Source: Hydrolagus affinis (Eukaryota). From it: a stretch of DNA of 64,000 nt. The stretch covers positions 1-64,000 of the forward strand of contig JAAILG010000991.1 in the NCBI GenBank assembly GCA_012026655.1, written 5' to 3'. The translations under genes were made by a program, and so were the position numbers. Shown here piece after piece: positions 9,301 to 39,815 of this stretch; the first letter of the stretch is position 1, and each line of letters opens with the position of its first letter. Under the pieces are notes generated by a model that did no database searches, was not told the DNA's origin, and was given only the letters and a program-made list of their open reading frames with translations.

Positions 9301-12300
9301 GCTTGGCATTTCCACATGTACTAACGTATATTCCTAAAGGAAATCACAAGACAGTTTACCCAAACCATTTTCCACCCTTCAATTTGTGGATATAGACATT
9401 GCGTTTGTATATTGTGTTTAAAGTAACTTGATCAATATTGTTTGCGGTTCTCAGAGCACAACTTAAAAGCTGTAATATGTAGAAAATGGACTTTTGAAGT
9501 TTGAGGAGATGTGAATTTGGGGTTAGGTTACTCTGGTTTACCCCTGGTGGTCCAAGTTTTGAGTCTCAGTGGTTAGATATCTTAAGAGTATGGGATATTA
9601 TACCTTGTTAAAGTTACATTGATATAAGGATTGTGGGCATGCTTATGTCGAATACTCTGAATGCAGGAATATATATATGGAAGCCTATGGGATTGAATAT
9701 ATGAAGAGTATTTCACTAATCGCTAAGTTGGTTATTGTTACTTCAATTTACATAATGATGCTAAACCCAATGAATTTCTGACACATAGTAAATCCAGTTA
9801 CATGTAAACTCTAGCAGTTCTGATCCACAGAAATGGGTTTACAGAAACAGGTTTGCCCTAATCCATTCTCGTCTGTACTTAAAAGCACTTACAGTGAGAC
9901 TATTTCAGTGAGACTATGTCAGTCACCCTTTTCAAATCAGTCGCCAACATAACAGAAGACTAGCACTGATGCCCACCCCATCACAGTGTTCTGTACTTTG
10001 TTAAAGTGGATCAAAGTTTGTCTACCCACAACCTCCTTTTGAGCATACAGAATTATAACCCGCACTTACTTTTGTTGTTACTTTTGTACAAATAGCAAGA
10101 TATCAGAACCATAGAGTACCTGGTTGTTGAGGATGCGGTCTGATTGCTTGCTATCTCTGAGAAACTGCTGGTAGCCATGTGACTGAGCAAGGTGTTCGTT
10201 CCTGTTCTCCCACATCTGATGGAGCTCATTCCAACCAGTGTCCAGCTCTTTCAGGCTCTGCTCCAGTATTTGAAACTGTGGGTCAGTTTCTTCCTGTGTT
10301 ATCATCTTGCCGGTGTCTCGGACCTTTTGATAATCTTCCTCATAGTGGTTGATTTCATTTTTGATGGCACTGTGCTGCCGGAGGAGGGCTTCAGCCTCCG
10401 GCAGTGAGTTTGGCATATCTTCGGAAGCTATGGCTTTTTGTGATTTTGATAACCACGTTTGAAAGTCATCTAATTCTTGCAGGAACTTCTGTAACTTGCT
10501 GGCTTCTCCGAGAGACTCCTCCCGGCCCTGCAGAGTTTGTCTCAGTTCTTCCCAGACATCATTGATTTCCTTAAGCCGCTGCAGGATATCTACAGCATGC
10601 TCGGGGTGCTCAGAAGCCAGTTTGTGGGCCTCTGTTTGCAGCTCTGGAAGCCTTGATTCAATGGCTGCAAGATCTCTCTCGATTCCACAAAGTTTCCTTT
10701 GAATGGCCATGACACCGGTTAAGTCATTTCCTAATTCTTGGGTCGATTCAATGAGTTTGGTTTTCTCACAGATCCAGACTTTGGTCTCATCACACTCGAG
10801 GCGGTAATTCTGAAGACTTAATGCAGAGTCCACACTCTTCTTTTTCTGCTCAACTAGCTTCTGGATAAGCGTCCACCTGCAAGGAGCATTTGAGAATGTT
10901 ATTCATGGGAAGGCCATGTGAAAATTCTTTCAATGGACAAATTGTATCAAGAAAATAGCAGCAGAAATCTCAACCAGTAAAAAACAACTGTTTTGAAATT
11001 AAAACATTTAAACCTATGCTGGTTAACTTTTAAAAAAAAATTGATAAATATTTTCGCATGCCCACATTGGGATTCATGGTAAATAATTTAATGATTTTAT
11101 ATTATTTCATCTCATATTTTCTGATCATGAGAAAATATATAACCAGAAATATCCAGGCCTCTTTGGGTTGGAGTAATTATTAGAGTTTCCAAAATGCTGC
11201 ACCATGGAAGTACAGAAGAATAAATTCCACTCATTATGCTTTACTTGATAATGTTCCTGATGGTGACTATATCATTGTATAAGTTATATTAACACACAGT
11301 TTCAGCTGTGAATAACCCCATTAATTTTTCATTCCATTTTAAAAATATACCTGGGTACACTCAGCCCATTAACAGCATATAAATAATGCAACGTTTTCAC
11401 TACTTAAAGCATTAAAGTTTACATGAACAATAAATCTATACAAGAGAGGCCATGCCAATTTATTATTTATAACTGTGCCTGTGCACCATTTCTGCTGGTT
11501 CTGCAATGTTTAATGGGAAATACGATTAAAGACCTGTATTATGGTGTGTAGTGGTGTGTTGCATGTCCACAACATCATTTGTCAGATACAACAACAACAA
11601 CTTTGATTTATATAGCGCCCTCCATGCCAGATGGCGTCTCAGAGAGCTTGATACCTTAACTCTAGGTAAAATAAGCATTGTTTGAGGTTCTCATTAAAAC
11701 AGAGGACATTTGAAACAGCATTTAAGGAACTTAACATTGGCTAAAAAGCCAATCTGCAGTATTTGTCCAAAGCTTAAACTGTTTTTAACTTAAGCCTGAT
11801 GTATTTTTGTAACATATTTGATTGATTAGTTACTGTGAAGAATTATATCTATCGAGGGACCTCACTGTTCCTCCAGCACCTGTTTTGCAATATTCCTGCA
11901 TACAGTTAAATTGGTACTGTAGACATCAGAATATAAATAGCCTATGGTTGCTATGCTACAGGGAGAAATCTCCTTGGCAAAAGATAGCGTAGGCAGCCAA
12001 TGCTGAAAACAAATTTTCACCGCTCATCATAATTGTTGCCAACCAGGTCTTGGGAGGCTGTCCTTTCCCGTACACACTTAGGTTTGCATTCAGCAATTAA
12101 AATCTTCCTTGCTCATTGTAAAGTGAAATGAGTTGAAATGGTAACCTTAATCTTTCACCTAAATGAATAAGAAACAAAATATGCAGCAAATGACAAATCA
12201 CTGAGTTGGTTTACCTATGGTTCAGACGGTCTTGAGATTCTTTAACTTCCTGGGTACTTGGGTGACCAGTCTCCACCAGATGCGTGGCTGCATTATTTAC

Positions 12301-15300
12301 ATCCTCGATTCGAGACCCCAAATTGTTCACTTCCACCTCCAAGGTTTCAAATCTATTGAAAGGTGTTAAGAAATAACAGATCACATCATGCCTTCAAACA
12401 TAGGTTTAAGAATAATTCCTTAATCAACATATTTGACCATTTACGTAACACCGCACCACTGATATTCACAAGTAATTCTTAGTGATTTTTAAAAAAATAT
12501 ATAAATTGTATTGAATGTAATCATTTATACTTCAGTTGAACATTGACAATTGGAATTGCCTATTGGAAGTAGTACGGATAGAAATAATTGAAGCTGTGAT
12601 TAAGATCTGTGATAAGATGTTGTGGGTTTCGCCAGTTCACATTATATTCTGTGAAGCGCTTTGAGACATCTTGAAGTCCTGATAAGGCACTATATCAAAT
12701 GCAAGAATTACTATTATCTACCTGTGCTGCACAACTTCCAGATCCTCCAGTTTCTTTGGTACCTCCAAACCCTCCAGCCACTTTTCTTTCTCAATCATCC
12801 ACAGCTCACATGCATCAGCCTCACTGAACATTCTATAGAGAGCAAGGGCATCCTGCAAACACTGTTTCCGTACATCTGACAGAGCCACTAGGTCAGCATA
12901 TATCTCTCTCATCTCATTCTGTTGGTCTCGTATTTCTGGTAGTTTCCTGAATTCATCTGGGAGCCTCTGTGCCTGCTTGTTCACAGCATCAATAGTTTGT
13001 CCACACTTCATGATTTCACCTGTCAAGTCTTTATGCTTCTTTACCAGTGTTTGTGTTGAAAATTCATCGTGGCCAACATCATCAGTGGACATGATGCGAT
13101 AAATGTCCTGCAGCCAAGCCTTGAGATCATCTGCATCGACTTGGTACTGGAAAAAGTTCTGAGTGTCCTGGAGATTTTGCTTGCAGAAGGCAGCCAACTC
13201 TTCCAAATCCTTCCACTTAGTGAGAACTTCGTCTATTCGTTCCTTAATCTTGGGCGAGGCAAAGTGTTTCTCCGCAATCATATCCTTGCCGTCTTTTACC
13301 GTTTGCTGCACATGAGATCTGAAACCACCCAGTTCGTCCTCCACTGCCTTATGTTTATTTTGCAGGATGACGATGCTGGTAATATCTTTCCCACAATCTT
13401 GTGAAGAGAAGATCTGCTCTCTTTCATTGATCCAGCTCTCGGTTTCAGCCATCTCCCAGAAGAACCTCCACAGTCGACGGGACTGCTCAAGCTGGGCTCT
13501 GCGTTCAGCTACCAAAGCGCAAAGGTCTTTGTAACATAGCTCTAGGTGGTTAACACGATCCCTGATCACATTAGGATCGCACGGTGTGTAACCTGGGAAC
13601 AGAATCACAAATAAACAGTAGTTTCAAATAATGTGGTAATTTCACTTAAATCAATCTGAAAACCTGCCATAATCTGGAAAAAGTCTCACAAAACAATTTT
13701 GTATTAATCGGAGTCTTTGAAGTTTTTCTAATTCCACAGCTTTTGCACTCTGTGTATTTCTAGTTTATTTAATTGCTCCATTACTAGGGAAATAGATTTG
13801 GTTTCATTGCGGAATGAAAAAGCTCTCAAAAATTCTGTTTTCTCATTTTTTTTCTGACATGCCACATTTTGCTTCCATAATACGCAATCACACAATCCTG
13901 AAAACTCAGAAGTAGGTGGAGTGATTAAAACATTGAATCGATATCTGTGTCTGGTTCGAAGATGGGGCTGATGTGTTTTCTCAGCCGACCTGATCATAAA
14001 CAATTTAAACAGTGCAGTATTTGAAATAAAGTCCTGTGGTAGAAACATCAATATGTACCTTCTCCTTCAGTGAACTTGAGAGCCCCTTTATTGACTAACT
14101 TCACTCTGTCAGCCTGGACTGCAATGTCAGCTTCCACCAAAGCATGTTTCTGTAATAGATCCTCTACACCCATCAGGTGTTTGCCAAGGTCCTGGGAGAG
14201 CAGTCGTACCTAAAATAGTCAAGAAATAAGGGTGTGAATCCAAGCGTAATAAAATACATTATATCTGCACGCTAGTATTGTAATGATTCATTATTTTAAT
14301 AGAGATTTTGACCATTGAGGATGTTTTGGGACATGCTATCCTCCCTGTGTGAAAGGCTCTATTTCAAATGGAAGTATTATTGTTATTATAACATGGTACA
14401 GCAGGAGGAATCTGAATTGATGACTTAATCTGACGTCTCCAGGGTAATGAGAATATCTCTTCTGATGTGAACTTATTTCCCTTACACTGGCTGCAATTTC
14501 TGCAAGACATTTCTCCTAACTACGTCATTGGAGCTCATTCTCTGAATAGAAACTATAATTAAATTCGAAATTAAAAATCCAAAAAAAGCAAAAACAGGTT
14601 GACAGGCAATTAAAAAGGTTATTAGCAGTGAGGCTCTAAACATTCTCACAGCAAATTACAACTAGTCAAGCATTCCTTGTGTTCCACTGGAACCAACTAA
14701 GCAAAACATGAATTCCCTCTTTTGCTTGAGTTAAAATCGACACGTACTTTCATTTCATCCATCCAGTCAATGATGTGCAGCATCTCCTGGAAGATCTTTT
14801 GAAGGTACACGTTCATCTCGAGCCTTGCCCGTCGAGCGTTGAGCAACTCCAACAGGTACTCCCAGAGTCGCATGATGTTGTCCTTCCTGGCATTAATGCG
14901 CTTGATGTCATGGTAATTCTCAGTCTCCAGCTCGTTCGACACATTCACAAGGGTCTGTACTCGTTCCTCGTAAGCTGCGATGTCTGTCTCGATGGCCTCA
15001 TGTTTCTTCATGGCCGCTTCCACAGCAGATAGGTCATAGCCAAAGTTATCCTGTGTGCCAAACGAATAAAAGGAAACAATAAATACGTGTAAGAGACTAA
15101 AATCTCTCACCAACGAGATGCAGCACAGCTACTTGTTCTGGCACAAATGAAAAGCAGACTCAGCCATTGAACATTGCTGGCTTCAATTGAAAGAAAAAGG
15201 ACTGTTGGACGTCAAACTATATGTTTTTAAAAAAGCATGCTTAGCTTTACAGCAGAGCAAATAACAGACCACTGGGGAAACTATTTTTCTTATGGTATGG

Positions 15301-18300
15301 TAACATGCAGAGCGTTATGTTAGTCATAAGCACCAGCACATTCAGACAGCCACTGGAGCAGCTTAAATGAGTCAGAAAATAATTTGTCATGAAGGAAAAT
15401 AAACTAGCTGATCACAAAAACATTCTAAGAAAAATGCGACTGAAATACACATTTTGTTCTCGGACTGAACTATATGCATTCACCAGTTGATCCGCTGAAG
15501 TACAACAAAGAGTAGGAAAAACAAAAGGAACAAGCGCCTTTATTTTGACTATAAAAGTCCGAACAAACAGGTTCAAATAAAACAGGAGAGAAGATTGTGA
15601 GCTGATTAAAGCACAAGGCAATGCCAAATGGTTTCACCAGCTTAAACGCCCACATTCTAGAATAGAGCCTGTACATTCAGCCAATATAGCCACTAGTAGA
15701 TAGTTGCATTAGAGTGTGTGGTGCTCGATGGGAATTTGAATCGTTCCAGGAGGCGAATAACTTCCGTTATTAAAAACACGAAGGCTGCAGAATGCAGGAC
15801 ACTTAATTAGGAAACGTGCCCACTTGCCCAGCCAATTGCTCAGATTGCTGGATTCTAATGAACTATCTACTGGAATAAAGAAAAAAAAACAGCACTGAAG
15901 TAAAACTGACAAAAAAAAGTTATTAATACTTTGCCTTCACCATCCTGATTTGCTGCTTCGTAAAACAATTTTTTTTGTGAAAAAAAACAATTACTTGGTG
16001 AGGACGCAGAGTTAAAGAGACAATACGAGAGATTTTCAATCATTGCATCATATTAAATATAAGTGTTGGAGAAATGATTACATGTTATCCAGTAACTTTC
16101 TGTTCATATACTTACATTTTCCTAACAAAATGAACACTGTGTTTCAATAATTATTTTTAAATAACTCATTATATCCAACCTACCCATTCAACATTAAATG
16201 TCATTTACACTAAAAATAAACTGTTGTATAATATCTACCTCCAATGCATTTATTTAGCATTCCTAGATGTTGACATTCACTAAGTACTTTGCAAATAAAG
16301 ACTAACATTGGAATATATTTTCTTGGAGCTGAAATGCTGAACACATTTGAGGTTTCTAGGACCTATTAATACACTGTGGTAAATATTTCATAGTTGTTCC
16401 TCACGCAAGGCTGTTCAGTCTGTACGTGCAAAGATCCATGCGTGCATCAGTGTAATCACTCATTAAAATTGCACTGTTCCTTCCCAATGGGAAAAGTCAG
16501 GGAAAGTCTGATCAGGTTCAAACATCAAATATAAAATGATTTCACAAACATGAGTGCACATTCTTCTAATCCTCATTGAAGACCATCAATCACTTGGAGG
16601 GAATGGAATATTCAATAAGCCGCTCCTTTCACTTGCACTGTGAAGATGGCTATATTTGCACTATAGTTCTTCATTATTATCTGAGTTCAAACATCCCAGA
16701 ACAATGGGGTTTGGGTAAAAAAAAAATCTATCTCGATTTCCAAATGAATATTATGCCTGAACGTCACTATCTCTATAAAATCTTTATCCTTGGGACATCC
16801 TCCCAACGCGAAAGGCACTCGACAAATGTAATTTTGTTGTTGTTACCCTAGATTAGGTGAATTTAATTGCATATAATATTCCAGATTGATCTGACCAATG
16901 ATCAAAACACCTAGCAGTGATATCTGCAACAATGCAACCCACTTTGTGTTGTAATCTATCCCACTGCCGTTGCACCATATACCTTTTGACCTTTGCAAAT
17001 CAATTTGCAAATCAATTTATCCACAATACCTGCATCTTCTAGGTCTCTTTCCTGATCTGTATGGTGTACACTGTTCCTTTCAACACCTATTCCCTTTCAT
17101 CTCCTTCTGGTTCTAGCTCTCATGGTTAGTGCCAGGTACTCTCCAAAAGGGGAGGGGAAAAGAATCAACAACATCATCCCAAACTCTGCACACCTCTAAA
17201 CAACCTGTTACACAACACAATTGGGAGAAACCATTGAATGGCTTCATGGCCCTAATCAAACCCTCCACCTCTGCCTCTACTCCCCCACATACACACTTAG
17301 TCGATGTACTTAACACTGTTTATGGAGGGAAAGAAATAAGGAGAAATTATATATAGCCAACATTATATGCATTTTTATATACAGTATTATATGCAAAAAA
17401 AGTACTCCAAGCACAATTTTTCAACTCTGCTGATTAGAATTCGTTAGATATTTACAGATTAGAGAAAGTTTTTTTTATTTGAAAGACATTATTTGTGCAA
17501 CTTGCAAATTAATAAGGGCGTTCAGTGATCAGCTCTTATTAATGATCTGAAACATGGCACTATTCCTGATTAATTTAGTGCGTGCATGTGTGTGATTTTC
17601 TTTACCTGTGAAACAAGCCGCTGATTTTCACACAACCAGGTCTCCCGCATGAGTGCCTTGCGGTCAAAACGGCGGGCGAGCTGCTCCAGCTTCTCCTGTC
17701 TGATCAGCTCATTTCTAAGGGCCAGTTCGCGTTCGTGTTCTGCCTTCTCCAGTCGTTCCCATCCCTATTGAAGAACACAACATGCAGGCAACATAAATTA
17801 TACCAGAATCTCCTTGCAACCAACTCACAGCCTTAAGAAGATTGATTCTCATAAGATTGCAGACTCTGACAAAGGCTCACTTAATCCAATTGAGGTATGG
17901 ATTCTTCTAGAGATCGTAAAGCAGAATTGTTGGATTTTGGTTCAAGTATACTGGTTCAAGTATATTTGCTGTGCTTCAATTCATGTGCTACAGGCCTGTA
18001 TTATAGTTTTCTAAGCATTTTCTTTTTAAAATTCTAGAAATTATTAAGAATGTCTTCTCTCACAGGGTTACTATTCTGGACTGGAATTCATTATTATACT
18101 GGAACACAGCAATAATATTGCATATTAAAATGCATAACAACAAAAGAATCGAAAGATGAAAAAGTCTGTCATCTGGAGGTTGCAATTGAAGCTTTTGCCC
18201 AAATCCTAGTAACTGAAATAGGGATCAATTCACTTATCCGTGGCTTGCGGGTAGAAAAGACCGTTTACATCTTCTTAACAGCTAGAATCTGCTCTGAGCA

Positions 18301-21300
18301 TTTGCTTTAATGAACGCTGAAATCCAGATGCTCTTCCCATACAGTCACACATTTCCCGTAACAACAAACCTACCATAATAGGAAACGGTGTCTCACTAGC
18401 CCAGCCCTGATTTTAGCAGAGGGCTAAACCAACAATTTTAAAACTTGTGGGTTTAGAAAATAAGAACTTACATGTGTACAGCGCCTTTCACGTCGGGAGG
18501 ACGTCCCAAGGCGTTGGACAATTTTCTCTCTTATTTTTACCAAACTGGTCATTGGAACCAATGAATGGACGAAGCTCCTACCCTGTTAATGTCCGAAATG
18601 AGTTTGCCTTCATGCGGTGTGTACACCTTCTGGTTATTCGCTCTCATCTTGCTCTGGATGGAGAACAGCAGCACTTCGAGATTACCTTTCTCTTGGAACC
18701 TGTGAGAGGATGGCAGCTCGTCACGCTTTAGTTACAATTTGAAAGCAAACCTCTGGGTAAACAGAGCCAAAAAAATAAAGGGAGATGAACTGGACAATAA
18801 TCTTGTAAACATCAATAGGCAGGGCAGCACAGTATTCCACAATGATTTGAAACCGTGTCCCATTAATCCACTCTGAAGAATGCCACAGAAGTAAGCAAAA
18901 GCATTCAAGCCCTGTTTGATTTAGTGCTGTTACTATTTTTATGCACCAAATTGGTTCAAACTTTGACTCTGGTCATGGCTTCCAGTCTTTTAAATCTTAG
19001 GTGTTCCACAAAAACATGAGCATTGAAAGCTTCGACGCAGGTTGAAAAAAATAAATGGCACATTTTCTAACTGCTTTATGCGAAAAGAGCAAATGTTTGA
19101 TACCAACCTGTTTCTGATCTCATCTGGTTTTATACAAATTCTCAAAGCTCCTGCAGATACACAGATTATAACTAATGATAATATTTATACAGTGCAGACG
19201 AATGGAGCTCATCACGGTGATGGATGTCAGTGAGAAAAGAAACACTTTTTAAGACTTCCCGGTGCCTTGTAACAACATTGAGTGCTCCCTGGGAACATTT
19301 AGCATAGGTCAGAAGAAGTGCAATACTCCTTTTGGTTTTGCCCCCCAAAACATCACCCCTCGAACAGCCTTAACTAATAATAACCCTCGTATTTGACTGA
19401 TGTGAGTTTTTGTTTCCCGTTGCCCAAGCCAGCCATCCGGTGGCCTCCCTGCGAGACTGGCATTGGGACAACGTTCAGTTCAAGTCTGTGCTGTAAAACA
19501 TGTGGAACTAAGCATCAGACTCAATCTCAATTTCAGGTTTTATTTCTCTTGCCAAAGACAGAAACATAACTAAATTCATCCAAGGCTAGGTTCAAACCCA
19601 TGACCCTGACATGAAACAACTGTGCATCCGTCAGCAATTGGTTCTTTTCAAAGTTATTGAAGTTTGCATAACCACCTCATGAATCACATTTAAGCTCCGT
19701 CTCTTGAAATATCTTGGGCTGTCCACTGGAAAAATCACAATATAAATACAGTGGGCCTCTGTCAATACTGCAGTAGTTCTTATCCTGATATGACAGCCCT
19801 GGTATAACACATGGGAAGCACAAAGGAAACGGCATCAGTGGTGACCTTATAACCTGGAAGTCAGACATTTTTAGATGGAAGCAACTAGCGCATGGGAAAT
19901 GAACCAGTCAACTGCGGGCCTGCACATTTTGGAATTTAATGGTTCTCAACTACTATGATAGAAGGCTCCAATTTGTAGATGAATGAAATGTGAATGAAAA
20001 GCAATTGAAACTGATATTGTTGTCACAAACATCCCACAGGGTTGTCTTCTCGGTACAGCTGAACTTTTGGAACAATGTTACATGGGATAGAACTGTAATG
20101 GAAGCATCTTGAGGTGATCAAAACTAAGAAACTTGTATGAGTATTACACCAAGACCTAAAACATACCTCAGCCTGACTTGCGTAACTTACTTAGAAGGTT
20201 TCTCCACAGTGCGGTAGGTGTTGAAAGCCTGTAGTTGTTGTTGCACTCCCGTCAAAGAGTTGGCAAACTTCCGGCTGTTGAGGATGATGATAGTCTGTTC
20301 GATCCAGGTCAACAAGTCAGAGGCCAATTGTTCGTATTTGTCGATCATTTTCTGGGTTTCAATTGCATTATCCAATACCTGAATGAAGATGGAGGAGAGC
20401 TCAAATCTGGTGATTAGCAAAACATTTTAATTATCAGCATTATAGTTTAAGTTATAGTGCATAATCTTATTTGAGAATACTGAATGCAAAGCGAAGATTA
20501 TTTATATCTAAACAGCAGTCATTTATCAAACAAACCTTTCCGATTCTCTTTCCCTCCACTGCTAATGCCTTCATCTTGGAGAAATAATGATAAAATGCAA
20601 CAACATAGGTGATTATTGATTTTTCATCTGGATTCTCTGTAAAAACATCTGTAAGAAAAAGACACATGCAATTTGTTTTTGTGATTTTATAAAACAGGCT
20701 TTATAATCAAGCAGAAGAATAGTGTTATTTGTGTCAGCACTCTGTCAAGTACAAATAACACCAAGAAGCATATTAATCCAAACAATAATTTGCAATTTTA
20801 CAATGCGTACAAGATGTCTCAAAGCATGAAATGTGTCATTCCTGTTAAGTGCAAGTTCAGGGTGGAAACCAGGGAGTACATCTACATGAATTAATGATTG
20901 GAACAGGTTACAGAAAGGGTATTGATAGGGAGGCCAGAATGCTGGATTTGTTTTAAAGAAAAGCTTAACACTGTGATGAAAGCAGAGTAGGGTGGATATT
21001 GTGGAAGGATTGATTGAGAGCAAATGGACGGAATGGCCTTCTTCACGTCCAAAAGAACCCAACTCCAGTTTTTACATTCATTTTTATGAGAAAAGCGTAT
21101 TCGTTTAATGTCATTTCGCTTAAAAGTCGCACTTTGCAAGAACCAAACCGCGACGTACAGGGTCTACCTGTATTGTGATCAGTTGAAATTTACATAAAGT
21201 CCAAATGAAATCTACCTTCGGGGTCAAGGAGTTTAGTCACACCCAGCTTCTGCTCTGCAACATTGAAGGCCTGCTGCAAGTTGTGGGTAGCATTCGATTT

Positions 21301-24300
21301 TTTCAGTTTCTTGAAATCAATCACATCAGGCCTGAAGAAGCAAAGACATGTTTCAAATAGGATCTGGTTTGTGTGTGCGTATGTATACACATTTTCCATT
21401 TAACACATTAATGAATTGCAATGAATAATGCTTTCCCTAGAATCCCAGACTTTAGGAATGTTACCCAGAATGGACAAGAGACAATTGTAGGTCATTTTAA
21501 ACAGACGTGGTTGGATGGGATTGTAGCAGGCAGCTTTACCTTAACCAATCACAAAACCCAGCTCCTGAAAGTGACAGCCACACATCCTACTGGCAATCGA
21601 TAAAAAAAATAATCATTTGTTAACAGATTTGAAAAAAACTACGTTAATATAAGCTAAACAGAACATAAACAAGTTACGGTTCTGGATAAGATCGTAAGGA
21701 GAAAAAAAGAGAGGCAAAAGGGAAATTATTCTGAAACGAGAGACGGTGACGGCCTGAGTTATGCACATTTCATTGCAAGCCACACTTGATGGCCATCGCC
21801 TCACTCACTCTACCTGTGCTTGTGGATAAGAGCATTGAATGCCATGCCATCCTTCCAGCTTGACGTGAAGTTTCTGATGTTTACATTGGGATACCTAGGC
21901 ACAAAAATAAAGTGTTTGTTCAGCAATGTGTCTTCCACCCCAGATACAGCAAAACGTTCAGACCCCATGCTTTGTGGTGTTAAGTTAAATCGAAGACCAA
22001 GATTAAAGGAAGGTCTGTAGACTTACCCTGCTGTCTTCATCTGGCACCAAAGGAGGAGGGCATCCTTCGCTGACCGAGTCTCACGGTTGTCATGTGTCTC
22101 TACAGTGATGTCCTGGATCTGAAATAACAGGTGCCATTTGTAGAGAATAACGTTCAGCAACGAGTGATTAAAAGCCGACAATCCCACGGGAGCTGCTCAG
22201 GTGATGCCATAAACCATAACATTAGACATGTTTACCTGAACACAGAGCGATTTTTAGCCCTAGATTCACCCCAGGATATGTATTTTTTTAAACCAGATAG
22301 ACTGGTGTTTGTTGAATAATTTAACTCAGTTTAAGCCTTTTATTTCTGTTATCACCTCGCTTCATGGTAGATGCTGATACTAGTGTCAATGAGATCTGTA
22401 CAAAAGGATTCATGATTGCACCATAATCATAGCAGGTATAATGAATGAGCAGCAGGTAATAAGTTCATCAGTACACACTTGGTTTAACATTGAAGTGAGA
22501 TTCACAGAGGGAGTGAAACCACTCGAAAGATTATTTCCATACTGTATCAATTGTAGTTCTTCTACATCAACACCTGATCATCTGTAGAAGAGAACATTTC
22601 ATGTCTCATGCCACGTATCCAATTACACGTTCAACATATAAACCAAACAGAGGAATAGCGATAGTTGATAAGACCAAATCCTCGGGTTCAGTGAGATAAT
22701 GTTCAATTTGATAGAGAACTTCAGTTAGTCATAATTTCAAAGGGATTTACAGAATAAAAAATTCTGTATCATTTATTTGAATAGACCTACATTTTTTTTC
22801 ACAAGCAGCAGTAGTTATGCAACAGCCTTTAGAGCTAAGGTGTATTTGGTCAGTGGTTAGGGCAGATTCTTGAAGACTGGGATAACAGAATGACTGTTTG
22901 ATGTACACAATACAATAAGGCTGCCAGCAGCAATCTGAACAGCTTAAGTGGTTGTCAATGTAGTTAGCGGTATCTGATTTCCCTCCAAGTCTTGTATCTG
23001 GCACATAATGTTACGTTATGCCAAGATATGTGTCTAAGAAAAGACCAGAAAAAGCACAGTACGAGAACACAGTGATTCTTTAGCAATACCTCACCATGAC
23101 ATTTCCACATATTCAGGAATGTCTTTCGTTTTCCTGAGTGTATTAATTGACCAAGCCAGAGGTCACAGAGTGAACTTTAACAAATAGTGAATAATTAACT
23201 CATTCAAAGTCTCAGCATTGACTCCCAAATGGCAAATATCTAAATGAATCAAGCTTGCGATCATAACGATTAATAGCATATTTATCTTTCAGTCAGATTT
23301 CAACAAGTCCACTCCACCCACATTGATGCGAGATGGGGCAAATAAGATCAGATCATATATTAAATCTTTAGCTCACACTTTCATCAGGTAGTGGTGATGA
23401 GGCAAGCATTCTTATCACATGCAAAAGGGCAAAGCTGACTTTTAAGCTAAGGAATTCTATTTTGGATAGCCACTAGTACATGGAATCTGGTGATTTTTTC
23501 CACTTCCCGGGTCAAGAAATGGGAAAGAGTACTTGAAGGAACTCCATTTCAAATACTATTGAATAAATCCACACAAAACTGGGAATAAACTAGTTGAAGT
23601 CTGATCAACTACTTTTCCTCTGGTTTCATTTATAGACGCTCTCGCAGATTGCATCTGAACAGGCTACCAGAAAGGATGGAGGATGTGGGACAATGGATTT
23701 ACTTAAGAAACAGCTTGATGCTTTAATGGCAATAGCGTCGGTGGGAAATCTGGGGGTACGAGACCAAAAGGACCAAAGACCCGTCAACATCAATCACTTG
23801 CCATCATCATCATCAATACCACTCTAGTGGATCTCGCTCAATCTCACTCTGTACATTTTGTGATCTTGTTAGTTTCAAAATTTAATCTCCTTTCTCGGAA
23901 TGTTTATTAAACAGCTGTCAATGTCAAAAGTGTTGTTGGACGGAAGGTGATAAAAACACAACTGTTTCCTGTTTCCACCCACCTGGAAGCGTAGGATGAT
24001 GGTCCAGATGAGACCCAGTGTCAGTCTGTGACTTCCATCAACGATGTCGTGTGACCCCATGTTTTCAAGGTGCACTTTTTGCTCTTTCAGGAACTGAAGG
24101 GCTTTGTCTACATTTTCCAAACAATGAATACGCATCCGGCCTTTGGTTGGCTTTGGCTTAATGGGAAGAATAATGGTAACGTGCATCAGGTCGAAAAGAA
24201 ATGCAATAGAAAATCAACAACAACTTACACTCATGCAATGTGTTCTCCTGTAAAACTAACATATAAAAACGCTTCACAGAATGAGATTTGTTAGAAATGT

Positions 24301-27300
24301 AGTGAACATCATGAAGGGGAAGGAACAGCGACCAGTGATGTGCAGTAAATTCATTGTAATTTGGGGAGAGAATTTGAATTATTTTCACAGTGTCAGGAAC
24401 GGCGGAATCTCTTCATGTTCAGCTGAATCAAAGCAGAACGGGATCTCAGTTGATGAATCAGCCCAAAAAATAATAATTTACTTTTCATCTGGCTCACAAT
24501 ACACACTTCACCTGTTTATTGCGGAGATTATCAGGTATCAAGTGAGGAAAGGAAATAATATTTCCACTGACCAGCATTGTTACCCCTCACAAATACAAAA
24601 ATAAGGAAATGTAGCAAGACATAGACATAAACATTGACAAACTCGATCAAACAAACATTGCATAAACTATTTGGAGTTCAGAATGCTTCAGCGCATTCAA
24701 AGTTAATGATCATCTCATTTGTGCATTTAATTTCTTTTTAAATAATAATGCACGGTAAACATGGGGCTCTCGATTTCATAGATGCACTTTACTCTATATT
24801 GTGTAATACAGGTACACAATATTACCTATTGTGTAGGTAATAAAAGTCCATTGCAACTTTCTCAAGGCCTTGAATTATTCTGTTGTTGTAATCGACCACT
24901 GATGAATCAAGATAGGTCAAAAAACAAAACAGTGACGCCAAAATTACATCCGATCCGAGAAACATACCAGTTGTTCTCCTGAAAGCACTTCCAGTAGTTT
25001 AATAAGCATGCGGCCATCTCGCAGGTCTGTGTACAGGTCAGTAATCCGGCAGGTTACACGTGCCAGGTGAGAGTTCACCCATTTTGTAAAAGTCTTCTTC
25101 TGCACAGCTTCTCGCTCATCTGAAAAACAATTGTAGAATACTGTTTGGGGTATCTCTTGTCACTGTGTTTAACCACCAATTGGATTGATCATGAATTTAG
25201 TGATGTACAGTGAACATTTTAAACTTAACATGGCGGACAATAATCCCATGCTACTATTCCCCAAAAAAGGGAGTTTCTCCCAGTGTCCCGGTTAACAATC
25301 TTGCAAATTAATACTGATCATTCATATCGTGTCTTTTTACGGAAAATTGCTGTGTCTAATTAGGAGCTAAAAAGAGCTCACAATTTGTGGGGGGAGGGGG
25401 GAAAATCAGTAGCTATCTCTCATATTTGCACTCTATTGTGAAATGGTAACTGTTTGCAAACATCATGAATGGATAAATCAAGAGAAAGCTTGTAGGATTA
25501 AAATAAAACCCAGGTATTGAACAAAGGTCATTTACAGGATCTCTATATAATGTAGACAGATGGCCACAGAAAACCGTTTGGGTAGGGCATCACAGACAGA
25601 TTTATTGATGGAATGTAAATGTAATAACAACAACATAAAAGAAATCTAGCAGCAGTATAAATAGTTGCTCATTACATTTCAAAGGAATAAAAACCTCAAT
25701 AAGGTTTATAAATAATACCAAGTATTTATCTATTTACATCTGATATCTTTATTAATTATATGGGCAAAGTCAAATCCTCCATGTTTGTTTATACTTATTC
25801 ATGTTTGCTGGTGTGCTAAACAATGTTAACATGGAGGAAGCCTGATTTAAAGGTCGAGGGAGGCTCTAAAAACAGGCACAGGTGAAGGGAGAAAGTCAAA
25901 AAGGACGCAATGTGAATGCAGGAAGGAAAAGGTAGTGCACAGCACAAAAGTAAAATTAAAAATGAAAAGGGATGGATGAAAGGATTGTGAGCCGCAAGGT
26001 GGGAGAAGGAGAGAGACAGCTGGTAAAGTGTAGTTCTGCCCTGCTTGTTGGAACACAACCATAAAAATGATGCAAGCAGATTAGACTCGCTTCACTCAAT
26101 GCACGTTCCCAATGCTGTTCTCACGTTCCTTAGGTTGGTGATATTTTTGTTCCCATTTTCAATGATTCACCAAATTGCAAAAGGGTGCAATGTAAATGCA
26201 AGTTGTTGTGGGAGAAACGCGGCAGCCAAATTGCGCACAACAGTGTCCCACAAACAGTCGTGGAAGTGGGGCCAGGGGAGAAAGGGAATAAGGGGGGAGA
26301 GGGAGGCAAAGGTGGGGTAAAATCAGGGAGGAAAAGGGGGGAGAAAGGTGGTGGTGGCTTAAAATCAGGGAGAAAGGAGGGTAAGGGGGCAGAGGGAGGG
26401 AAAGGGGAAAGGGGGAGAAAAAGGGAGTGAGGAAAAAAGGCCAGGGGGCAAGGGAGTGGGGGGGGAAATCAAACAACAACAAAGAACAAAATTTGTTTGG
26501 GATGGCATAAATGAACAACTTCATTCAGTCAAGCCCAAGAATAGCTTGTGATAATAATAATCCTTGCATTTGATATAGTGTTGGGAGGATGCCACAAAGC
26601 GCTTCACAAAATTCACTGTAAAGTATAACCGAACTTAGAAATCGAAACAAAAAATTGGGCAAGTTGGCTTATCCAGCCTGTCTTATCCAGTGCTAAGTAC
26701 TCTCTCTCCAAAGAGAATCAAAGGCTCCAATACCGAAGAGAATCATTGTTAAACCAACCCTCACTCAGCATTTAATTCATGCTATTCCTAAGGCAGCAGC
26801 ATTCGATCTGACACCTTGATGAACATAACAATGTAAAGTTTGTCAAAAGCATTTGAGGGGAATGAAAAAGCTGGTACTGTATTATGAAGTGTCCAAAAGA
26901 TTCAACAATACAACAGAGAGCATCGTGAGTGCACAGTAATTATTCATTTCAGACAAACATTCAATGTGCATATCACCTCCCTCAATGATTAACAAGGAAA
27001 TAAATACATAGCCATTTCCTTAATTAACAGTATCTTTTGCTGTATTTTTTAAACTGAATTTCAGTTTCTATGTAAATAAGTGTGTGTGAGGGGTGGGGGG
27101 GAATCCATTCCCCAAGAATAACTGAGACACAGCCAGCTAGTTGCACTATACAGTGAGCACTCAATGTTGCTGCTTTGAATGATTTAAAATGGAAAAGTGC
27201 AAAAAGAGACAGTTCCGTGATACTGACAGAGCCATAGCTTGGGAAGGAGGAGGGGGAAAGCAATGAGAAAGATTATCTGATTGCAGCAAACTCACCAGTG

Positions 27301-30300: not shown

Positions 30301-33300
30301 ACAAAGATAAAAGTGTACCTTGTAACTGTTTGAAACGCCCATCCATGATATTGTAAGACGTCTGATGTGGAGGATTGTAATCTGGACACATCCCTGCCAT
30401 GGCAGACATGAGTAGAGCGGTTGAGGCACTAGTGGCCGAGAGCTTTAGCAGGTGGATCTGCACAGCTGCAATGCCACAAGCACTTTCAGAATCCACTGGA
30501 AGGTGGAGCCCTCAAGTTGATAGTTAATTTCCTTTTTCCACGTTAGCAGTGCTCCAGCTCTGCTTGAGAGAGTTTCTGAGAGGATAACATGACCCTCGTC
30601 TGACAGTTCAATGCCAAGCCTCGACTCGCAACCCTGCTCTACCTGCCTCGCACACACACGCGAGCACACACACACACACACAGAAGATTTGCATATGAAT
30701 TGGCTTCTATTTGAACATGTCCCTATCACAATAATCAGGCTGAGTGATGTCACTTTTAATGTGCCCTAAAGCGGTGTAGGAATAAAATAAGAAAGACTGC
30801 AACAACAGGAGGAGACTAGACCGGATATCACAGTGCAAATATTAGCAGTGTACTCAACGTCTCCCTGAGGTCTGCCTGACTATAAGCTGAGTATAACTAC
30901 AGTACATAGAACTTGGGTTTAGAAACAGTGATACCATTAATACCTATATGACAGCAAATTACTGAAAAATATTTAATAAATACTGGTTATCCTACATAAC
31001 AAAACTGATAATGCTTCAATGGCCAATAGATAAAATCACACCTCTGTTATATTGCTGATCTGTGTGGTATCAATGCAAACTGTGTTGTCTAATGGATTTT
31101 ATAAATTGATTCATTTCACCCACAAATATACAGTCAATACACTTTACAGCAGATTCTGTGGAGCGCTTTGAGACGTCTAGAAAATGTGAAAAGCGCTGTA
31201 TCAAATGCAAGGATTATTATTATTATTTTATACAGCAGCAATTTGTATTTACTGTACATAATGTCCTCATGTAGAGTGACATCTCATAATGCTTTACAGA
31301 GATGGTGCTGGACAGCAAGTAGGGAAGGTGATAGTGGGGGAGTGAGCTGGAAAGGAACAACCTTAGAAAGTGTTTTAGGCACCCAGAGACAAATACACAG
31401 GAGCAAAACACAGGGAGATCCACAGGATGGGGGCTTAATGGATGACGGTAGGGCAGAGGTGGGTAAGCAAAAGGCAGGAGTTTTAAGAGCAAAATGGACG
31501 AACAGAAGAGGGAAGCTGGAGCGACATTTCACAGCACATTATATTCTGTGAAAATGATATGTTAGTATAAAATGCATACCGCACAGACTCACTTATTTGC
31601 GCAACGCAAGCACACAAGAATGTACATTTTGCATTCATCAATATTTACACTTCCTTCAAATAGGATTGGCAGCCTTGGGTGAAAATTTCCAATCCCATTT
31701 TTCAGCAAGAAAAACTTGCATTTATATAGCGCCCTTCACGGCAGACGGCCTCTTGAAGCTCTTATACAATGCCTTTCACATCGGGAAGAAGATGCTGTAC
31801 AGTGAGGGAATTGGACCTGACTTGCGGGTTGGGATAAGGAAGGATGGAGGACAGGGAGGGAGGGGGTAAGAGTGTGAAGGGACCTTACAGCAAGCAGAAA
31901 CAGCAGGTTTCCACTGAATTAGTTTAAGCTGCATTCAAGCACAAACTCAATCAACCACCACCCAGCTTTTCTGCCCTCCATGTTAGCACATTTATTGATG
32001 CGTTGATGTGCAAGATTTATTCGATTCACAGAAAGATTTTTGTTTCGTCAGCAGCAAGTGAAACAACAGACAGTAGCAGACAAAGGCTCCTGCCACAGTC
32101 ATGCAATTAAAACTACTGTACAGTGATACTAGGCTTCAATTCTGTGCCTATAACAAGTCCACATGATTCTCTGCATTTGTGATCAGGGATTAAAATTTTA
32201 AGAAGCATCAAAAAGCAGAACGGGAGGGCGCAAGGAAGAGGGATTTTAGCAGATGGTTGCTGAGAGTGGATAAGAGTAACAACTAAATCTAAGGCAGACA
32301 AACCATCAGGGGTGGTGACTATTTAAAGGCAGACCAAGGAGCCACTCTGTGTAATCTAGGACAGTAGCAGATGATGGCAGATAATGGCAGATGAAGCACA
32401 ACAAGAACTCTTCAGCTGATGGCCCCACACTGCACAGTTGCTTCTGTCAGTGAAAGGATGCCCAGAACATCTCATCAGCGCTGTCACTGTCTATTTCCTC
32501 CATGAGTTTGGATTGTAAATCTTTTGTTGGAAAATATTGCATTGTCTGGACTGAGCGACAATTAACTGCACTCGTTTGCCATTTCCACCTCCTTTGCAGT
32601 TTTATGTATTGGATTCTTGTGTTGAAGATTTGCTGCGAACACCCATGGAGCATTTTGACAAACAACATCAAGAGTTTTGTTTGATGTTGTATGCTCTTTT
32701 ATCATTACCTTGTAAGCCAAGACGGCAAAAATGCAAAGAACGGGTCAAAATTTGGTGAAAGCTTTTCATATTTTAATAACAGCAATGTTTCAATGCCTGG
32801 AGCAGCTAAGACATTTCATTTTCATTATAATGAAGCCGCGTGCAAGCTAAACTTTAAAGCTTCCACAATCTAATTAAAGGCTTCTGACAGGTGTTGAAAT
32901 ATTGTGTCAAAGTACTTGGCAAGCAAACCAGCAAACAAACAAACAAACAAGCAGGGTTCATTACACATTTTCCATTCAATACTTTTTGTTTCCCAGTTCT
33001 CTGTAACTGCAACAGTGTTTTTCCCCCTAATATTGTAACTTTAAATCTATATTTTCATCAAGGGATTGATCCACAGAGATGATGTCGGATGCCAAGCAAG
33101 GAACGAGGGAGAAGTGATCACACGTGCAGTTAGAGTTAGGTTTTTAGGCAGAATTTAAAGAAACCCACAACAAGCATTTATATAACGCTATTTACACAGG
33201 GTAGCATCCCAGAGCGCTTGACGGTGCTGGTGTGAGGGCAATGAGTCAGGGGAAGAGGGAGAGGATAGGTAACTGAAAGTATATAAAAATGAAGGTCTTT

Positions 33301-39300: not shown

Positions 39301-39815
39301 CAAATGCCAAAGTTCCTGTCTGAACTGTACAGTGACTATATTGGATTCACCAGGAAACAAACACTTCCAAATGCTTTCGATTGACAAATTTGCAGGATTT
39401 CCCTGAATTCAAATATTGAGAACAGCAAGTAAACCTTTTCCGTCCTCCAATAATCCGACTTTCAAACTGCTACAAGAATTTAAGCTTTGAATTGAACAAA
39501 ATCTAAACGAATTTGTTACGTAAATAGGATTGAGACAATCATTTTACGTCCTTTTAAAAAGATATGTTGCTTCATTGCAAAAATAATAGCAGAAAGCCCC
39601 AGCATCATTATCCATCAACCTGTCAAATGATTAGAAAGCCTTGCGCTGCTCATTTCCCCCTTACCTGCAAGGGCTTTGATCCTGGAACGCTCGAACAATC
39701 TTGCAGAGCTGTTGTCATTATCTAGTTCATCTTCATCAGATAGTTCCCAGCGAGCGTTGATGTGGCTGTATTGCTGTTGGATTTCCACATTATCAAAATC
39801 TGTGGCTGATGTCAT
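184..39815 (-). CDS. SPTB: Beta-spectrin, erythrocytic type (beta-I); spliced CDS of 27 exons, 3'-incomplete at window edge
   Basis: Exons join in frame to 1980 codons: CH1-CH2 then spectrin repeats. N-terminus [32 protein letters not shown] and the segments [35 protein letters not shown] and DNFGYDL match my recollection of SPTB rather than SPTBN1. Confidence 0.9.
548..792 (-). CDS. SPTB: Exon 27 (repeat 15 with AYAG loop)
   Basis: tgcag|GTA ... CG|gtatgt; 245 nt. Confidence 0.95.
1427..1801 (-). CDS. SPTB: Exon 26 (repeats 14-15, ankyrin-binding region)
   Basis: ttcag|TTG ... CAG|gtacgt; 375 nt. Confidence 0.95.
2601..3400. mobile_element. Non-autonomous Tc1/mariner-superfamily (pogo/Tigger-like) element, 800 bp
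   Basis: Terminal inverted repeats tagtagaagcccgtttatccg and cggataaacagccttctactg, each flanked by TA (2599-2600, 3401-3402); no transposase ORF. Confidence 0.8.
3421..3625 (-). CDS. SPTB: Exon 25 ([21 protein letters not shown]..)
   Basis: ttacag|T ... ATT|gtgagt; 205 nt. Confidence 0.95.
3668..3960 (-). mobile_element. SINE, related subfamily (tail and core)
   Basis: (AAT)n, gatatagcacc..gcttcacagaata..gcagccaaat..cccacaaa. Confidence 0.7.
4427..4557 (-). CDS. SPTB: Exon 24 ([19 protein letters not shown])
   Basis: tgcag|GAT ... GG|gtgagt; 131 nt. Confidence 0.95.
5559..5834 (-). CDS. SPTB: Exon 23 ([16 protein letters not shown]..)
   Basis: ccatag|ACT ... AAG|gtacat; 276 nt. Confidence 0.95.
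6126..6215 (-). CDS. SPTB: Exon 22 ([25 protein letters not shown]..)
   Basis: ttacag|CTC ... AAA|gtatgt; 90 nt. Confidence 0.95.
6330..6539 (-). CDS. SPTB: Exon 21 (repeat 11 helices B-C; divergent)
   Basis: ggatag|ATG ... AAT|gtaaga; 210 nt; ends [11 protein letters not shown]. Confidence 0.88.
7255..7518 (-). CDS. SPTB: Exon 20 ([12 protein letters not shown]..)
   Basis: ggcag|GAA ... GAG|gtaacg; 264 nt. Confidence 0.95.
8582..8728 (-). CDS. SPTB: Exon 19 ([26 protein letters not shown])
   Basis: ttgcag|CTT ... AAG|gtgaaa; 147 nt. Confidence 0.95.
8934..9024 (-). CDS. SPTB: Exon 18 (..[16 protein letters not shown])
   Basis: ttctag|A ... GAG|gtttgt; 91 nt. Confidence 0.93.
9131..9333 (-). 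CDS. SPTB: Exon 17 ([13 protein letters not shown]..)
   Basis: tttag|GAA ... AG|gtgagc; 203 nt. Confidence 0.95.
10120..10876 (-). CDS. SPTB: Exon 16 (about repeats 7-8)
   Basis: ttgcag|G ... CAG|gtactc; 757 nt. Confidence 0.95.
12215..12352 (-). CDS. SPTB: Exon 15 ([19 protein letters not shown]..)
   Basis: caatag|A ... AG|gtaaac; 138 nt. Confidence 0.93.
12605..12717 (+). mobile_element. 5'-truncated SINE tail abutting the exon 14 donor
   Basis: tattctgtgaagcgctttgagac..ctatatcaaatgcaagaattactattat. Confidence 0.75.
12722..13592 (-). CDS. SPTB: Exon 14 (large exon, about repeats 3-6)
   Basis: cccag|GT ... AG|gtagat; 871 nt; lies within ORF 12718-13608. Confidence 0.95.
14059..14209 (-). 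CDS. SPTB: Exon 13 ([22 protein letters not shown]..)
   Basis: tttag|GTA ... G|gtacat; 151 nt. Confidence 0.95.
14748..15050 (-). CDS. SPTB: Exon 12 ([23 protein letters not shown]..)
   Basis: cacag|GAT ... AAA|gtacgt; 303 nt. Confidence 0.95.
17606..17764 (-). CDS. SPTB: Exon 11 ([17 protein letters not shown]..)
   Basis: caatag|GGA ... CAG|gtaaag; 159 nt. Confidence 0.95.
18582..18699 (-). CDS. SPTB: Exon 10 ([16 protein letters not shown]..)
   Basis: cacag|G ... AGG|gtagga; 118 nt. Confidence 0.95.
20191..20378 (-). CDS. SPTB: Exon 9 (start of spectrin repeat 1)
   Basis: attcag|GTA ... AA|gtaagt; 188 nt. Confidence 0.95.
20536..20648 (-). CDS. SPTB: Exon 8 ([25 protein letters not shown]..)
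   Basis: ttacag|AT ... AAG|gtttgt; 113 nt. Confidence 0.95.
20850..21055 (+). mobile_element. CR1 LINE 3' remnant (others near 6594-6720 -, 25440-25625 +, 54735-54910 +)
   Basis: ..tttaaagaaaagcttaa..atggacggaatggccttctt resembles a CR1 3' end; an aacataag repeat tail sits at 6594. Confidence 0.5.
21216..21331 (-). CDS. SPTB: Exon 7 (CH2: [23 protein letters not shown])
   Basis: cttcag|G ... G|gtagat; 116 nt. Confidence 0.95.
21814..21894 (-). CDS. SPTB: Exon 6 (CH2: [27 protein letters not shown])
   Basis: cctag|G ... AG|gtagag; 81 nt. Confidence 0.95.
22027..22118 (-). CDS. SPTB: Exon 5 ([25 protein letters not shown])
   Basis: ttcag|ATC ... GG|gtaagt; 92 nt. Confidence 0.95.
23983..24156 (-). 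CDS. SPTB: Exon 4 (CH1: [24 protein letters not shown])
   Basis: cccattaag|CCA ... CAG|gtgggt; 174 nt. Confidence 0.95.
24968..25119 (-). CDS. SPTB: Exon 3 (CH1: [19 protein letters not shown]..)
   Basis: ttcag|AT GAG ... CTG|gtatgt; 152 nt. Confidence 0.95.
26268..26465 (+). repeat. Purine/G-run-rich low-complexity tract
   Basis: Many G3-G9 runs separated by short A-rich spacers. Confidence 0.85.
28363..28648 (-). mobile_element. Full-length SINE, same family
   Basis: Reverse-complement match to 29586-29905 including the GGAGTCCT head. Confidence 0.88.
29586..29905 (+). mobile_element. Full-length tRNA-derived SINE (Deu-like core, L2-like tail)
   Basis: A box TAGCTCAGTGG, B box GGTTCGATTCC, central aattggctgc core, gtgaagcgctttgagac tail ending in (TAT)n; several paralogous copies in the window. 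Confidence 0.88.
30319..30409 (-). CDS. SPTB: Alternative first coding exon ([30 protein letters not shown]), SPTBN1 short-N-terminus-like
   Basis: Ends CAA G|GTACAC in phase 1, compatible with exon 3 (gives ..KQLQ-DEREAVQ). ATGs at 30409 and 30400 (GCCATGG). In-frame stop upstream at 30512-30514. Confidence 0.8.
30640..30760 (-). promoter_or_regulatory. Candidate internal promoter for the alternative first exon
   Basis: Octamer ATTTGCAT 30687-30694, CCAAT (minus) 30699-30703, CRE-like TGATGTCA 30745-30752, (CA)n 30650-30682. Confidence 0.45.
31105..31228 (+). mobile_element. SINE 3' fragment (similar fragments near 26550-26630, 34187-34290, 38400-38545, 48833-49030, 58680-58772, 63480-63625)
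   Basis: Matches the 3' half of the full-length copies. Confidence 0.75.
39665..39815 (-). CDS. SPTB: Exon 2 coding part (full exon 39665-39865), start codon
   Basis: ATG at 39815 in GCCACCACA-ATG context; acceptor tttctcttcttgcag before 39865; donor GCAG|GTAAGG, phase 1. Confidence 0.95.

Follow-up and report, generated by a model that had tools for sequence, protein, structure and literature searches.

A conserved, probably alternative first coding exon in the beta-I spectrin gene (SPTB) of the chimaera Hydrolagus affinis

A short exon inside a beta-spectrin gene of the chimaera Hydrolagus affinis is, in our reading, a real and conserved exon of SPTB that most likely serves as an alternative first coding exon, with a predicted splice to exon 3 that would replace the canonical N-terminus. 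We put the probability of this reading at about 85%. It concerns the window, i.e., the whole stretch of 64,000 nucleotides analysed here. The original prediction, made from the letters of the window, had presented the exon as hidden, novel and “beta-II-type”, and neither part of that description has survived. Annotation of the kind that it had itself singled out as removing the novelty exists for sptb orthologues in Callorhinchus milii, zebrafish, bowfin and many teleosts, and the label is too narrow for an exon that is present in SPTB, SPTBN1 and SPTBN2. Since public annotation already includes the isoform, its novelty is low, and the exon in the window is a new species' copy of it.

Results

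Two models of the gene, each with 26 exons, were assembled from tblastn matches and give a canonical product of 1933 aa and an alternative one of 1913 aa, both free of stops and with GT-AG borders at all introns; the C-terminus of the gene lies outside the window (Table 1). The modelled protein has an intact frame with tandem CH domains followed by spectrin repeats. On the minus strand, the alternative exon is situated between the canonical exon and exon 3 and ends in a GRF-basic-QLQ motif at a phase-1 donor (AAG followed by GTACAC, directly after 30319) that joins the first CH1 exon. The original prediction had read the intronic frame in the same way, and both the translation and the open 1913-aa model agree with it. 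The donor score compares with a range of 4.0–11.5 bits for the gene's own 26 donors, and it is equalled or exceeded at 4 of the 840 GT sites in the host intron, the alternative donor itself being counted. Translated on the minus strand, 30514–30319 runs from the stop through 34 codons without an ATG into the 30-residue peptide. The ATG in the GCCATGG context is present at 30400, as had been described, although the peptide as originally given begins at 30409, and the “M” at 30496 in the open reading frame track is indeed a GTG.

Table 1. Features of the SPTB gene in the window
Feature	Coordinates	Strand	Details
Alternative N-terminal exon, coding part	30319..30409	-	30 codons + 1 base, phase 1; putative 5' end
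Three in-frame ATGs	30389..30409	-	30409 in weak context, 30400 in strong Kozak context (GCCATGG), 30391
Splice donor GTACAC	30313..30318	-	8.5 bits (matrix from the gene's own donors)
Best candidate in-frame acceptor	30465..30479	-	6.0 bits; would yield a 147-nt internal exon
In-frame stop upstream of the exon	30512..30514	-	From translation of 30514–30319
Canonical first coding exon	39665..39815	-	50 codons + 1 base, phase 1; acidic N-terminus and actin-contacting helix
Shared exon 3, start of CH1	24968..25119	-	Takes either N-terminal exon in frame; acceptor at 25119
Other 24 modelled exons, SPTB body (CH1-CH2, spectrin repeats)	548..24156	-	tblastn-based; gene continues beyond the low end of the window

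The canonical exon is identical to that of C. milii isoform X1 at 50 of 50 residues. An acceptor immediately before 39865 implies a further-upstream, untranslated first exon. Upstream of the canonical exon, between 40200 and 64000, a motif scan and a listing of long frames recognised no protein-coding gene or synteny neighbour.

Foreign sequences single out the alternative exon as well. Alternative termini of 22 residues from five proteins (one SPTBN1, two SPTBN2 and two SPTB) were compared without gaps with 127,864 six-frame positions, and all five found their best match at 30385 on the minus strand, with scores of 54, 33, 42, 39 and 44 against next-best scores of 24, 29, 29, 28 and 28, respectively; the margins span 4 to 30 score units, and that of the skate terminus is thin. 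In tblastn, the Callorhinchus N-terminus matched 30409–30320 with E=4e-24. By these comparisons, the match of the alternative exon in the window is not due to chance. With 163 distinct N-terminal segments as queries, no third alternative exon was found in the window, where the other matches were weak or scattered. The single match of the exon peptide in the PDB (E=0.7) was taken as chance, which leaves the short terminus without a PDB match. A protein search with the exon peptide alone gave two candidates, neither of which scored, and a 16-residue match in a representative library (P0121) belongs to an unrelated 1639-aa protein and was dismissed as chance.

As to the surroundings of the exon, a search of the 600 bases 5' of the ATG found no TATA-like motif; the closest ones, at 31103 and 31232, fall within or border on a dispersed repeat, probably a SINE-like element. 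Copies of this repeat flank the exon at 29584–29907 and 31103–31231, and many more occur across the window at 70–88% identity. An upstream reading frame of 15 codons, out of frame with the exon, occupies 30590–30543 on the minus strand, 3' of a TG-repeat at about 30680–30650, and would be relevant only if transcription begins 5' of it.

That the gene is the SPTB (beta-I spectrin) orthologue is supported by a gene-body tree, obtained with a quick IQ-TREE run on 29 rows and 1251 columns with the N-terminal exons excluded, drawn with a midpoint root and with SH-aLRT as its only support measure; the rows are the window and 28 proteins picked from 238 to cover the groups, with neither an invertebrate root nor a cartilaginous-fish SPTBN1 among them. 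The window pairs with C. milii (SH-aLRT 100) on an SPTB side (SH-aLRT 99) that also holds fish, frog, reptile, bird and mammal SPTB. SPTBN1, SPTBN2 and SPTBN4 form separate groups, and a split with a support of 100 divides SPTB and SPTBN4 from SPTBN1 and SPTBN2. The original prediction had named the gene SPTB and proposed such a tree as a check, and the value of 99 upholds the assignment.

An alternative in which the window holds SPTBN1, or a copy of SPTBN1, and the exon is simply the known Elf3-type N-terminus, is scarcely credible next to this grouping. It would draw on raw identity, which outside the chimaeras is highest to SPTBN1 (about 70% between the window model and amniote SPTBN1, compared with 63% for bear SPTB and 58% for bird SPTB), on the later RefSeq entry for C. 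milii, XP_042193997.1 (P0239), which is named “non-erythrocytic 1”, and on the synteny marker not found in the window. However, raw identity is highest to SPTBN1 because the SPTBN1 branches are very short, the canonical exon of the window carries an SPTB-type acidic motif, and the earlier RefSeq name of the C. milii orthologue is “erythrocytic”. Between the two names, the tree favours the earlier one. Proteins of skate, horn shark and lungfish that are labelled “non-erythrocytic 1-like” group with SPTBN2 in the same tree; judged by the tree, the names of fish beta-spectrins, being assigned by similarity, are untrustworthy.

For this SPTB gene, the closest counterpart of the short form is C. 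milii XP_007886307.1 (P0223), a predicted RefSeq model from a different species that is named “spectrin beta chain, erythrocytic isoform X2” and represents the orthologous short isoform. Like the alternative window model, it has a 30-residue terminus with the same junction, its exon is identical at 25 of 30 residues with all three Met residues in place, and 1743 of 1916 residues (91%) are identical over the models. Its length falls 20 aa short of that of isoform X1, which is also the difference between the two window models. The short terminus occurs in one of the 12 members of the C. milii cluster, the other 11, including XP_042193997.1, being canonical. The lower identity of the alternative exon (25 of 30 residues, compared with 50 of 50 for the canonical one) might be expected if transcription of this exon had ceased in the source species and left it as a remnant, but this is very improbable: the frame and the donor are intact and conserved, so are the three Met residues and the last 12 residues, and the exon is annotated across ray-finned fish.

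The ray-finned sptb isoforms of zebrafish (XP_005158906.1), Danio aesculapii (XP_056332566.1), bowfin (XP_066550926.1) and sturgeon (P0172) fall in the SPTB clade and share the terminal motif and the CH1 junction with the window, whereas the upstream part of their termini has no sequence relation to it; the zebrafish and bowfin entries are labelled erythrocytic isoforms. The best 120 of the 155 matches in a search with a large exon included cavefish models named “Spectrin, beta, erythrocytic” with a short-type terminus. Residues 1–40 of one of these served as a follow-up query, and among the matches listed (the best 120 of 556 were examined) were NCBI entries for “spectrin beta chain, erythrocytic isoform X1/X2” from many ray-finned fish. 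The support for the short terminus in SPTB consists of predicted models throughout. In many teleost sptb models (P0123–P0171, P0253), the short exon is extended upstream by a Ser/Pro-rich stretch of about 140–250 residues, an extension missing from the models of bowfin, sturgeon and chimaera.

The stop upstream of the exon, from which the original prediction had concluded that the exon behaves as a first exon, is present, but it does not force that status because five AG sites between the stop and the donor would give open in-frame cassettes. The exon could then serve chiefly or additionally as an internal cassette, with the canonical exon spliced to an acceptor 5' of the ATGs and two pre-CH1 segments standing in tandem. 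Models with the canonical exon upstream of the motif exist in all three paralogues concerned (16 SPTB, 2 SPTBN1 and 11 SPTBN2 models, or 29 of the 135 motif carriers described below), and seven SPTBN2-type NCBI models from horn shark, toad and several teleosts (P0180, P0200, P0202, P0205, P0226, P0228, P0229) fuse the canonical to the short exon. Because short linkers connect the two exons in these seven, dual use is plausible in SPTBN2, the exon order in paralogues being taken from the fused models themselves. For the gene in the window, use as a cassette nevertheless seems unlikely. Even the best of the five acceptors, at 30465, is below the median of 9.2 bits for the gene's 25 true acceptors (range 1.4–14.2), the join points in the fused SPTB models vary in the manner of homology-built artefacts, and the three conserved Met residues come with a strong Kozak site. 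A first coding exon is favoured because the Met cluster is conserved and the C. milii model begins at the same Met.

The terminal motif of the exon is not confined to SPTB. It was detected within the first 320 residues of 135 of 289 proteins (64 SPTB, 13 SPTBN1, 58 SPTBN2 and 0 SPTBN4), counts that are non-independent, as the set includes fragments and several models per species, and in which paralogues were assigned by the best blastp match to the references on the tree. Its invariance is partly built in, since the proteins were retrieved and counted by the motif. The SPTB carriers come from chimaera, sturgeon, bowfin and teleosts, and 48 of the 64 motif-bearing SPTB-type proteins have no canonical exon upstream, while the SPTBN2 carriers come from skates, lungfish, frogs, marsupials and a loris. 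Among the best 120 of the 556 matches to the teleost query, there was no tetrapod SPTB and no SPTBN4 with the short terminus.

Homology with the short N-terminus of SPTBN1, which the original prediction had proposed, was borne out when that isoform was retrieved as P0005. The SPTBN1 form (mouse Elf3, Q62261-2; P0005, P0027, P0078) has the same seven terminal residues and the same junction as the window exon, to which it gave the widest margin in the ungapped comparison (a score of 54, where the best background match reached 24), but it belongs to a paralogous gene, its terminus has 36 instead of 30 residues, and the upstream halves differ. Mouse Sptbn1 Elf3 has N-terminal motifs of the short-form type, and one study lists a measured half-life of the protein in heart (PMC13419524). 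The short SPTBN2 models (skate XP_055520757.1, lungfish XP_043916434.1, and those of frogs, marsupials and slow loris) likewise share the terminal motif and the junction, but they too represent a paralogous gene, have an LSPAA-type motif that is absent in the window, and in several NCBI models use the exon internally. Mammalian-type SPTBN2 with the short terminus is found in P0208, P0224, P0231, P0233 and P0289, of which one is named as loris and two as marsupials; there it takes the place of the segment on which high-affinity binding by SCA5 L253P depends. One of them, a Logan contig of 8010 bases (P0233), encodes a whole SPTBN2 of 2397 aa with the short terminus and is therefore a spliced transcript, although it bears on the paralogue only.

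Carriers of the exon stand on both sides of the split between SPTB plus SPTBN4 and SPTBN1 plus SPTBN2, and we therefore infer from the midpoint-drawn tree that the exon dates back at least to the ancestor shared by beta-I, beta-II and beta-III. This agrees with the earlier proposal that both N-termini predate the divergence of beta-I and beta-II, and extends it, as SPTBN2 has a short terminus too.

Discussion

Exchangeable segments directly in front of CH domains are also known from UNC-70c, plectin and the spectraplakins, which resemble the window gene in arrangement. Plectin has many first exons. Actin binding by the N-terminal region of plectin is described as regulated via calmodulin (in passages of PMC5676748), and UNC-70c of Caenorhabditis elegans is described with a unique 103-residue extension before its CH domains (in passages of PMC6233056). 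Moorthy 2000 was discarded as a source for alternative N-termini in C. elegans, since passages of PMC2174577 place the splice before the PH domain. Within the literature searched, which covered few subscription journals, neither a short N-terminal SPTB isoform nor the pattern across three paralogues was found, and in passages of a review on beta-II spectrin, Sigma1 and Sigma2 are solely variants of the C-terminus (PMC7757025).

The position of the junction suggests what the exchange of exons would do to the protein. In passages on beta-III spectrin, S37–A52 is described as a helix lying on actin and running on without a break into helix A of CH1 from D53 onwards (PMC8810934), and removal of residues 1–51 is reported to abolish actin binding (in passages of PMC5676748). 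The canonical exon of the window aligns with residues 6–52 of 6ANU and 1–49 of 8IAH, two solved structures that both carry the canonical terminus, so the junction corresponds to the border between the N-terminus and CH1, and the swap would replace the whole segment. The original prediction had likewise placed the exchange in the actin-contacting segment before CH1, and the junction does fall at the first CH1 residue as defined in PMC8810934. A link to Paralemmin-1 was rejected, because in passages of PMC11887803 this protein binds residues 261–307 of beta-II, outside the segment before CH1.

A transcript of the short form would begin at a putative intronic promoter, and splicing of the alternative exon to exon 3 would substitute a short N-terminus of 27–30 residues for the canonical one of 50 residues. 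The last 16 residues of the canonical exon, which according to the literature make up the actin-binding helix required for binding, would be lost in this swap. The short isoform would presumably still bind actin, since its last six residues keep features of the canonical form, with which it shares an Arg at position -6, hydrophobic and basic residues at -5 and -4, respectively, and a Leu at -2. The acidic segment is lost, however (2 acidic residues in the short form versus 11 in the canonical one), and a Gly stands at -7, seven residues before CH1, so that the short isoform would probably differ in actin affinity or its regulation in tissues that use the intronic promoter. AlphaFold gives the C. 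milii short form a mean pLDDT of 44, with a canonical control also below 50 for the greater part of the CH region, so that both models were set aside as too low in confidence there. No direct comparison between the two termini was found in the literature searched.

Both exons would already have belonged to the common precursor gene of beta-I, beta-II and beta-III, possibly having arisen there by exon duplication, so the canonical and short exons may be old duplicates of each other. As a tentative and rather doubtful extension, the two exons could form an ancestral two-way switch of the N-terminus that has been kept in beta-I of fish and in beta-II and beta-III through to mammals, has disappeared from beta-I of tetrapods and from beta-IV, and in which the choice of promoter sets actin affinity.

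Conclusions

As the discovery of a hidden exon, the finding is minor, the isoform being public already for many fish, elephant shark and zebrafish among them. The remaining interest lies in the observation that three of the four conventional beta-spectrin paralogues have the same second N-terminus, apparently unremarked so far, and that this terminus replaces precisely the segment reported as required for actin binding. If the ancestral switch is true, beta-III spectrin, the product of the SCA5 gene, would have a short isoform without residues 1–52, which are required for the high-affinity binding and the toxicity of L253P, and the choice of isoform could then alter which cells are vulnerable.
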